Of a stretch of DNA of 64,000 nucleotides, positions 16,801 to 19,800 are shown in pieces (position 1 is the stretch's first letter; each line of letters opens with the position of its first letter). The stretch lies in NCBI RefSeq assembly GCF_003334765.1, contig NZ_QOWT01000002.1. One strand, written 5' to 3'. The position numbers were made by a program. The stretch comes from Escherichia coli (GTDB lineage Bacteria > Pseudomonadota > Gammaproteobacteria > Enterobacterales > Enterobacteriaceae).

Positions 16801-19800
16801 TTTCCCTGTTAGCTAATCACTTTTTGCAAAAATTCAGTAGTGAGAATCAGCGCGATATTATCGACATCGATCCGATGGCAATGTCACTGCTTACCGCCTG
16901 GTCATGGCCGGGAAATATTCGAGAGCTTTCCAACGTTATTGAACGCGCCGTCGTGATGAATTCAGGCCCGATCATTTTTTCTGAGGATCTTCCGCCACAG
17001 ATTCGTCAGCCAGTCTGTAATGCTGGCGAGGTAAAAACAGCCCCTGTCGGTGAGCGTAATTTAAAAGAGGAAATTAAACGCGTCGAAAAACGCATCATTA
17101 TGGAAGTGCTGGAACAACAAGAAGGAAACCGAACCCGCACTGCTTTAATGCTGGGCATCAGTCGCCGTGCATTGATGTATAAACTCCAGGAATACGGTAT
17201 CGATCCGGCGGATGTATAACACCAAAACTTGCTATGCAGAAATTTGCACAGTGCGCAATTTTCTGCATAGCCGCTCATTCTCCTTATAAATCCCCATCCA
17301 ATTTATCCCTTCATATTCAATTAGTTAAATAACTAAATCCAATAATCTCATTCTGGCACTCCCCTTGCTATTGCCTGACTGTACCCACAACGGTGTATGC
17401 AAGAGGGATAAAAAATGAAAACAAAATTGATGACATTACAAGACGCCACCGGCTTCTTTCGTGACGGCATGACCATCATGGTGGGCGGATTTATGGGGAT
17501 TGGCACTCCATCCCGCCTGGTTGAAGCATTACTGGAATCTGGTGTTCGCGACCTGACATTGATAGCCAATGATACCGCGTTTGTTGATACCGGCATCGGT
17601 CCGCTCATCGTCAATGGTCGAGTCCGCAAAGTGATTGCTTCACATATCGGCACCAACCCGGAAACAGGTCGGCGCATGATATCTGGTGAGATGGACGTCG
17701 TTCTGGTGCCGCAAGGTACGCTAATCGAGCAAATTCGCTGTGGTGGAGCTGGACTTGGTGGTTTTCTCACCCCAACGGGTGTCGGCACCGTCGTAGAGGA
17801 AGGCAAACAGACACTGACACTCGACGGTAAAACCTGGCTGCTCGAACGCCCACTGCGCGCCGACCTGGCGCTAATTCGCGCTCATCGTTGCGACACACTT
17901 GGCAACCTGACCTATCAACTTAGCGCCCGCAACTTTAACCCCCTGATAGCCCTTGCGGCTGATATCACGCTGGTAGAGCCAGATGAACTGGTCGAAACCG
18001 GCGAGCTGCAACCTGACCATATTGTCACCCCTGGTGCCGTTATCGACCACATCATCGTTTCACAGGAGAGCAAATAATGGATGCGAAACAACGTATTGCG
18101 CGCCGTGTGGCGCAAGAGCTTCGTGATGGTGACATCGTTAACTTAGGGATCGGTTTACCCACAATGGTCGCCAATTATTTACCGGAGGGTATTCATATCA
18201 CTCTGCAATCGGAAAACGGCTTCCTCGGTTTAGGCCCGGTCACGACAGCGCATCCAGATCTGGTGAACGCTGGCGGGCAACCGTGCGGTGTTTTACCCGG
18301 TGCAGCCATGTTTGATAGCGCCATGTCATTTGCGCTAATCCGTGGCGGTCATATTGATGCCTGCGTGCTCGGCGGTTTGCAAGTAGACGAAGAAGCAAAC
18401 CTCGCGAACTGGGTAGTGCCTGGGAAAATGGTGCCCGGTATGGGTGGCGCGATGGATCTGGTGACCGGGTCGCGCAAAGTGATCATCGCCATGGAACATT
18501 GCGCCAAAGATGGTTCAGCAAAAATTTTGCGCCGCTGCACCATGCCACTCACTGCGCAACATGCGGTGCATATGCTGGTTACTGAACTGGCTGTCTTTCG
18601 TTTTATTGACGGCAAAATGTGGCTCACCGAAATTGCCGACGGGTGTGATTTAGCCACCGTGCGTGCCAAAACAGAAGCTCGGTTTGAAGTCGCCGCCGAT
18701 CTGAATACGCAACGGGGTGATTTATGATTGGTCGCATATCGCGTTTTATGACGCGTTTTGTCAGCCGGTGGCTTCCCGATCCACTGATCTTTGCCATGTT
18801 GCTGACATTGCTAACATTCGTGATCGCGCTTTGGTTAACACCACAAACGCCGATCAGCATGGTGAAAATGTGGGGTGACGGTTTCTGGAACTTGCTGGCG
18901 TTTGGTATGCAGATGGCGCTTATCATCGTTACCGGTCATGCCCTTGCCAGCTCTGCTCCGGTGAAAAGTTTGCTGCGTACTGCCGCCTCCGCCGCAAAGA
19001 CGCCCGTACAGGGCGTCATGCTGGTCACTTTCTTCGGTTCAGTCGCTTGTGTCATCAACTGGGGATTTGGTTTGGTTGTCGGCGCAATGTTTGCCCGTGA
19101 AGTCGCCCGGCGAGTCCCCGGTTCTGATTATCCGTTGCTCATTGCCTGCGCCTACATTGGTTTTCTCACCTGGGGTGGCGGCTTCTCTGGATCAATGCCT
19201 CTGTTGGCTGCAACACCGGGCAACCCGGTTGAGCATATCGCCGGGCTGATCCCGGTGGGCGATACTCTGTTCAGTGGTTTTAACATTTTCATCACTGTGG
19301 CGTTGATTGTGGTGATGCCATTTATCACCCGCATGATGATGCCAAAACCGTCTGACGTGGTGAGTATCGATCCAAAACTACTCATGGAAGAGGCTGATTT
19401 TCAAAAGCAGCTACCGAAAGATGCCCCACCATCCGAGCGACTGGAAGAAAGCCGCATTCTGACGTTGATCATCGGCGCACTCGGTATCGCTTACCTTGCG
19501 ATGTACTTCAGCGAACATGGCTTCAACATCACCATCAATACCGTCAACCTGATGTTTATGATTGCGGGTCTGCTGCTACATAAAACGCCAATGGCTTATA
19601 TGCGTGCTATCAGCGCGGCAGCACGCAGTACTGCCGGTATTCTGGTGCAATTCCCCTTCTACGCTGGGATCCAACTGATGATGGAGCATTCCGGTCTGGG
19701 CGGACTCATTACCGAATTCTTCATCAATGTTGCGAACAAAGACACCTTCCCGGTAATGACCTTTTTTAGTTCTGCACTGATTAACTTCGCCGTTCCGTCT

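Follow-up and report, generated by a model that had tools for sequence, protein, structure and literature searches.

Sequence elements of the AtoSC-controlled sigma-54 promoter region between atoC and atoD in Escherichia coli

The 195-bp spacer between atoC and atoD (17220-17414), which reaches exactly from the atoC stop to the atoD ATG, is almost certainly the characterised promoter-enhancer region of the atoDAEB operon. All positions refer to the window, i.e. the whole stretch of 64,000 nucleotides of E. coli DNA that was analysed. A sequence-only reading had proposed that the complete architecture leading from AtoSC to a sigma-54 promoter can be recognised in this spacer, and the sequence elements, the domains of AtoC, the conservation and the literature all agree with this proposal. 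The analysis presented here establishes that the elements are present, statistically unique and selectively conserved, and it establishes the domain architecture of AtoC. The binding of AtoC in vitro and in vivo as well as the occupancy by and dependence on sigma-54 are established by the published articles cited below.

Because the AtoC site, the ChIP data and the rpoN-dependence have already been published, the region is not new; the control region is already known, and nothing contradicts the reading given here. The one weakness of the sequence-only reading is that footprinting, ChIP and rpoN-dependence were put forward as checks still to be made, years after they had been carried out. It represents textbook two-component signalling into an enhancer-dependent sigma-54 promoter, mapped biochemically and by ChIP-seq, and is of little discovery value. 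The practical worth is that of a positive control, in which a reading from sequence only recovered a validated regulatory architecture with correct coordinates. In addition, each element stands out clearly as a phylogenetic footprint in the cross-genus alignment.

The features of the region are given with coordinates, strand and, in brackets, the basis of the assignment:

14011..15837, + strand: atoS, the sensor histidine kinase of AtoSC (RefSeq K-12 annotation; mechanical ORF 13999-15837)
15834..17219, + strand: atoC, response regulator of the NtrC family of enhancer-binding proteins, ORF of 461 aa (Pfam, motifs, RefSeq)
17231..17271, no strand: AtoC enhancer (UAS), palindrome of 41 bp (uniqueness, conservation, published AtoC site)
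17272..17352, no strand: AT-rich looping spacer from enhancer to promoter (about 30% GC versus 51% in the window)
17315..17327, + strand: IHF-like site ATTCAATTAGTTA (one mismatch from WATCAANNNNTTR)
17353..17369, + strand: sigma-54 promoter atoDp, CTGGCACTCCCCTTGCT (exact core, conservation, ChIP-seq site OS21)
17377..17380, + strand: expected start of atoDAEB transcription (predicted)
17381..17414, + strand: 5' UTR of atoD (sequence; Shine-Dalgarno AGAGGGA at 17403-17409)
17415..21261, + strand: atoDAEB operon (ORFs and RefSeq names)
17415-18077, + strand: atoD, ORF of 220 aa (ORF and RefSeq)
18077-18727, + strand: atoA (ORF and RefSeq)
18724-20046, + strand: atoE (ORF and RefSeq)
20077-21261, + strand: atoB (ORF and RefSeq)

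The ato locus and its regulator

Comparing atoC-atoD (15834-18077) with the complete E. coli genomes by megablast revealed 100% identity to K-12 MG1655 and to many other strains. The RefSeq gene names at this locus are atoS, atoC, atoD, atoA, atoE and atoB, with rcsC and yfaP on either side. Due to the 100% identity and these names the region was assigned to the K-12-type rcsC-atoSC-atoDAEB arrangement. The gene names were transferred from the 100%-identical K-12 record, for which the window coordinate equals the locus coordinate plus 9833. The atoDAEB operon serves to break down short-chain fatty acids and acetoacetate.

AtoC has the architecture of an NtrC-type enhancer-binding protein, with a receiver domain (Response_reg, residues 7-115), a sigma-54-interacting AAA+ domain (Sigma54_activat, 145-311, E 2e-75) followed by AAA_lid_14 (317-393), and a Fis-type HTH domain (HTH_8, 415-454). 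Its translation carries the Walker A motif GESGTGKE and the GAFTGA loop, which contacts sigma-54. The sequence-only reading had assumed a regulator of the NtrC type upstream of the spacer; the domains and the GAFTGA loop are indeed present, in a protein that RefSeq names AtoC and whose gene adjoins atoS. That AtoC has further described roles was also stated correctly, as two articles mention e.g. an antizyme function and an involvement in motility (PMC3118216, PMC10963238).

Some other features of the window were recorded as well. Downstream of yfaQ, a gene of the alpha-2-macroglobulin family contains an internal stop in the K-12 record and is annotated there as a pseudogene (L001 13933-14244, corresponding to the window from about 23766 onward), while in the O157:H7 strain 8368 an internal stop is found in yfaQ instead and not in the macroglobulin gene, which is intact. 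When the window was scanned at the Rfam gathering threshold, the MicF sRNA (+ strand, 7051-7144) was identified, as were three REP-type elements (naRNA4, - strand, 10805-10881, 10919-10995 and 41169-41239), the first two of which are located just downstream of rcsC.

Promoter, enhancer and looping spacer

Only one exact TGGCAC-N5-TTGC exists in the window, namely TGGCACTCCCCTTGC at 17354-17368 on the + strand, with the GG of the -24 element at 17355-17356 and the GC of the -12 element at 17367-17368. The sequence-only reading had placed this promoter at 17354-17369. The element is real but its end differs, as the core stops at 17368; the T at 17369 corresponds to W in the extended consensus YTGGCACGrNNNTTGCW. 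Likewise, the proposed layout with a palindrome upstream of the promoter was found, and the gap, given as about 85 bp, measures 82 bp from the palindrome end to TGGCAC. By chance the exact core is expected about 0.26 times per 64 kb when both strands are counted, and at least one copy was present in 21 out of 100 shuffles; versions with one mismatch are as frequent as in shuffles. Because 0.26 are expected per window, the count of the -24/-12 motif alone is weak evidence. The weight of the match results from its position, since it lies inside the 195-bp spacer, is oriented towards atoD and is found 47 nt before the ATG.

Published data place sigma-54 at exactly this position. The ChIP-seq study of Bonocora et al. 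2015 describes a site OS21 with the motif CTGGCACTCCCCTTGCT on the + strand, assigned to the gene atoD, with a motif centre at U00096.2 2321415 and a distance of 35 between predicted TSS and gene (PMC4591121). The site is flagged 'C', i.e. experimentally confirmed in EcoCyc, and is modest among the sigma-54 sites (occupancy FAT 5, PSSM score 9.39; PMC4591121). For the conversion of the coordinate, the centre plus 19 plus 35 gives 2321469, which is the atoD start and thus window position 17415. The OS21 motif centre then corresponds to window position 17361, the exact centre of the 17-mer 17353-17369. Furthermore, a genomic SELEX peak of the RpoN-holoenzyme is reported for the spacer between atoC and atoD by Shimada et al. 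2021 (PMC8743547). In other articles AtoC is described as activating expression of atoDAEB that depends on sigma-54, citing Matta 2007 (PMC3118216), an atoDAEB promoter-reporter was increased by AtoSC expression (PMC10963238), and the ato control region was employed as a part of an acetoacetate biosensor (PMC7618054).

The 5' UTR of atoD shows about 79% identity across genera, with GTACCCA being invariant in Escherichia and Citrobacter, and an Rfam gathering scan found no known RNA element in 17000-17500. If the palindrome position of -146 to -107, as reportedly given by Matta and colleagues in 2007, is applied, the +1 would be located at 17377-17378. The rule used in the ChIP-seq article, i.e. 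motif centre plus 19 bp, would place the +1 close by, at 17380 (PMC4591121).

The near-perfect palindrome of 41 bp that had been claimed for 17231-17271 was confirmed. It begins 12 nt past the atoC stop and is composed of two arms of 20 nt each (17231-17250 and 17252-17271), which are complementary at 18/20 positions (90%) and separated by a gap of 1 nt, the central G at 17251. The unpaired positions are 17243/17259 (T-T) and 17248/17254 (A-C). A repeat search identified this palindrome as the sole inverted repeat in 17150-17480, and in our own scan of the 64 kb no second repeat with 20-nt arms and a gap of at most 3 nt could be found, even if only 16 or more matches out of 20 were demanded. 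In 30 first-order Markov simulations of the window repeats with at least 18/20 matches never occurred, and those with at least 16/20 occurred once in total. The 20-nt half-site is found with up to 3 mismatches at these two places only in the window, versus 0.03 expected.

Within the palindrome there are four TGC(A/G) tetrads, 9-10 bp apart (17235-38, 17245-48, 17254-57, which reads CGCA on the + strand, and 17264-67), and these are its best-conserved positions across genera. Judged from this spacing, two AtoC dimers may be bound on one helical face. In the passages of the literature that were searched, no four-tetrad arrangement of the AtoC site was seen. With 110 bp from centre to centre, the palindrome falls into the range of about 80-150 bp in which a dyad-symmetric enhancer would be expected upstream of a -24/-12 element, and this arrangement is kept alongside AtoC orthologues (83-90% identity) preceding atoD. 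Matta and colleagues are said to have mapped the binding of AtoC in 2007 by DNase I footprinting, with the palindrome at -146 to -107. An article citing Matta 2007 calls the 40-bp palindrome the experimentally verified AtoC site and states that AtoC binds it in vitro and, inducibly by acetoacetate, also in vivo as seen by ChIP (PMC3118216).

The AT-rich spacer between enhancer and promoter (17272-17352) is poorly conserved except for the IHF-like site. Matches to the IHF consensus WATCAANNNNTTR with one mismatch are without enrichment in the window (62 versus 53 expected). The site at 17315-17327 is invariant at 13/13 positions in 6 E. coli strains, and across genera it has a mean identity to K-12 of 79% versus 40-51% for its flanks. 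IHF was reportedly found in the 2007 work of Matta and colleagues to be required for the activation of atoDAEB.

Variation among strains and conservation across genera

As the sequence-only reading had remarked, the ato locus is strain-variable: it was found in 3928/5426 complete E. coli genomes, whereas the flanks are present in 5426/5426. The atoSC-atoDAEB block of 7.4 kb is missing from about 28% of these genomes. In the O157:H7 strain 8368, 197 bp of unrelated DNA (L087 2920-3116) lie between rcsC and yfaP in place of the part corresponding to 13921-21333 of the window. Because this replacement spans the entire block together with the control region, the regulators, the enhancer, the promoter and the operon occur together or are missing together.

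Two further rearrangements were observed at the locus. E. coli strain CUVM53 has a deletion of 147 bp (L007 3170-3185), the ends of which lie in two copies of TGGCACTCC, at window positions 17354-17362 and 17501-17509. The first copy is that of the -24 element, the second is located within atoD. Along with the -12 element, the strain has lost the 5' UTR and the start of atoD, which RefSeq lists there as a pseudogene. It looks like a microhomology-mediated event with the promoter core as one of the repeats. In the laboratory strain ET12567 (NZ_CP045457.1) atoC-atoD is matched in two pieces and a transposase of the IS4-like ISVsa5 family is annotated beneath, which suggests that an IS has inserted into the atoSC genes.

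For the comparison within the species, six E. coli strains which are 95.6-100% identical in the spacer were aligned. Almost all variable columns fall into two segments of the spacer (7/43 and 6/25 positions), and the palindrome is invariant at 40/41 and the -24/-12 17-mer at 17/17 positions.

Scanning species-representative genomes with AtoC resulted in six true orthologous loci, one from a cryptic Escherichia (90%) and five from Citrobacter (83-86%). Paralogous matches to NtrC-family or receiver-domain proteins, with an identity of 56% or less, were left out of the cross-genus comparison. In 6/6 orthologous loci atoC is followed by an atoD start, and the order atoS-atoC-atoD-atoA-atoE is kept in the one locus whose ORFs were listed (L009). 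The mean identity to K-12 across genera is 89% for the palindrome and 78% for the promoter 17-mer, versus 40% and 51% for the spacers. In the 7 species the GG, the GC and the distance between them are invariant, and TGGCA(C/T)-N5-TTGC is retained. Between the enhancer centre and the GG of the -24 element there are 104-107 bp, and the C of the -12 element lies exactly 47 nt from the ATG in 7/7 species.

The two arms of the palindrome also change together: the pair idx11/29 reads T:A in Citrobacter as opposed to A:T in K-12. In the cryptic Escherichia as well as in C. werkmanii, 19/20 positions of the arms match. The asymmetry at the centre, GCACA / TGCGC, which contains the A-C mismatch 17248/17254, is kept in 7/7 species. 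On the level of the aligned sequences these comparisons show a phylogenetic footprint, in which the palindrome, the IHF-like site and the -24/-12 element are kept while the spacers decay.

Alternative readings, mechanism and known systems

Two other explanations were weighed against the AtoC enhancer and the sigma-54 promoter. The palindrome might act mainly at the RNA level, as a 3' hairpin which terminates or stabilises the atoSC mRNA, and not primarily as a protein-binding enhancer. Its start 12 nt beyond the atoC stop is compatible with such a role, and so are the RNA fold of 17210-17300 (-28.1 kcal/mol, z = -6.6 versus shuffles) and the pair idx11/29, whose two members differ between K-12 and Citrobacter in such a way that base pairing is preserved. 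The folding energy does not discriminate between the two explanations, because long DNA palindromes always fold as RNA. The stem, however, lacks a U-tract, as CCGCUCAUUCUCC comes next, and the terminator scan of the + strand of 17000-17600 was empty. The 41 bp are moreover conserved in sequence, which is beyond mere pairing, the A-C mismatch 17248/17254 persists in 7/7 species although a stem constraint would disfavour it, and published binding and ChIP assign the palindrome to AtoC (PMC3118216). Taken as the main function, the RNA-level role is very improbable. An intrinsic terminator as the primary function was rejected in particular: the hairpin is strong, but because there is neither a U-tract nor a terminator call, because the sequence is conserved and because the A-C mismatch persists, termination is not the primary explanation.

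The other explanation concerns the promoter. If TGGCAC-N5-TTGC were a chance match, atoDAEB could be transcribed from a sigma-70 promoter that is activated by AtoC, and the expectation of 0.26 cores per 64 kb together with one-mismatch versions at shuffle level would allow for such a match. But the promoter scan found no sigma-70-like promoter in 17000-17600, GG and GC, as well as the distance between them, are the same in 7 species with diverged flanks, and AtoC has the sigma-54 interaction domain and the GAFTGA loop. Finally, sigma-54 ChIP-seq (PMC4591121) and SELEX (PMC8743547) are both reported at this very site, so that a chance match is already refuted and we assign it practically no probability.

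It is a different matter whether further layers exist in addition to the enhancer and the promoter. The palindrome could also serve as a 3' hairpin of atoSC, contributing to stability or to a limit on read-through, and CUGUACCC could be a pairing site of Spot 42; we consider these layers rather unlikely. An article citing Beisel 2012 names atoD as a reported target of the catabolite-repression sRNA Spot 42 (PMC7618054). CUGUACCC at 17379-17386, a strongly conserved block at the 5' end of the atoD mRNA, is a perfect 8-nt complement of Spot 42 nt 4-11 (GGGUACAG), the Spot 42 sequence used being 100% identical to the annotated gene. The RNAduplex result for Spot 42 and the atoD UTR was no better than for shuffled targets, of which 55% did as well, and the number of chance 8-mer matches was estimated at about 0.04. 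Because of a duplex energy at shuffle level and about 0.04 chance 8-mers, the pairing site is a suggestion only. Spot 42 pairing as the cause of the UTR conservation was rejected, again with the duplex energy at shuffle level. If true, the hairpin role and the Spot 42 pairing would add little to a system that is already well known.

Returning to the preferred reading, in which AtoC acts from the palindrome on a sigma-54 promoter, the following mechanism can be proposed. Acetoacetate would activate the kinase AtoS and lead to its autophosphorylation, and AtoC would be phosphorylated in turn. Phospho-AtoC would occupy the 41-bp palindrome, the centre of which lies upstream of the promoter at a distance of about 110 bp, probably as two dimers whose four TGC(A/G) contacts share one helical face, and would then form the AAA+ ring. 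This two-dimer stoichiometry, as well as the exact +1, is inferred. Bending of the AT-rich spacer, in which the IHF-like site lies, would allow enhancer-bound AtoC to contact the sigma-54 holoenzyme, which presumably waits as a closed complex on CTGGCAC-N5-TTGCT. ATP hydrolysis, coupled via the GAFTGA loop, would open this complex, and transcription would start about 35-38 nt before the atoD ATG.

With regard to known systems, atoDp of E. coli K-12 (Matta et al. 2007, J Bacteriol 189:6324; EcoCyc/RegulonDB) is the same locus with 100% DNA identity. There is no difference between the two, i.e. the region is the described system itself and not a relative of it. With NtrC and glnAp2 it shares an activator of the REC-AAA+-HTH_8 type, dyad sites that precede a GG-N10-GC promoter by about 100-140 bp, DNA looping and the ATP-driven formation of the open complex. 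At glnAp2, two separate dyads of 17 bp are found about 32 bp apart and IHF is not known to be needed, whereas the 20-bp arms of ato abut (centres 21 bp apart) and form one palindrome of 41 bp. The ato spacer also differs by its IHF-like site, and the signal is acetoacetate via AtoS and not the nitrogen status.

Sigma-54 promoters which are assisted by IHF include those of nifH, pspA and prpBCDE. In comparison to these, the IHF-like site of ato has one mismatch and is a putative site, read from the sequence. What ato has in common with this group, for which prp is given as an example in PMC2965739, is an AT-rich stretch that separates enhancer and promoter and contains a WATCAANNNNTTR-like site.
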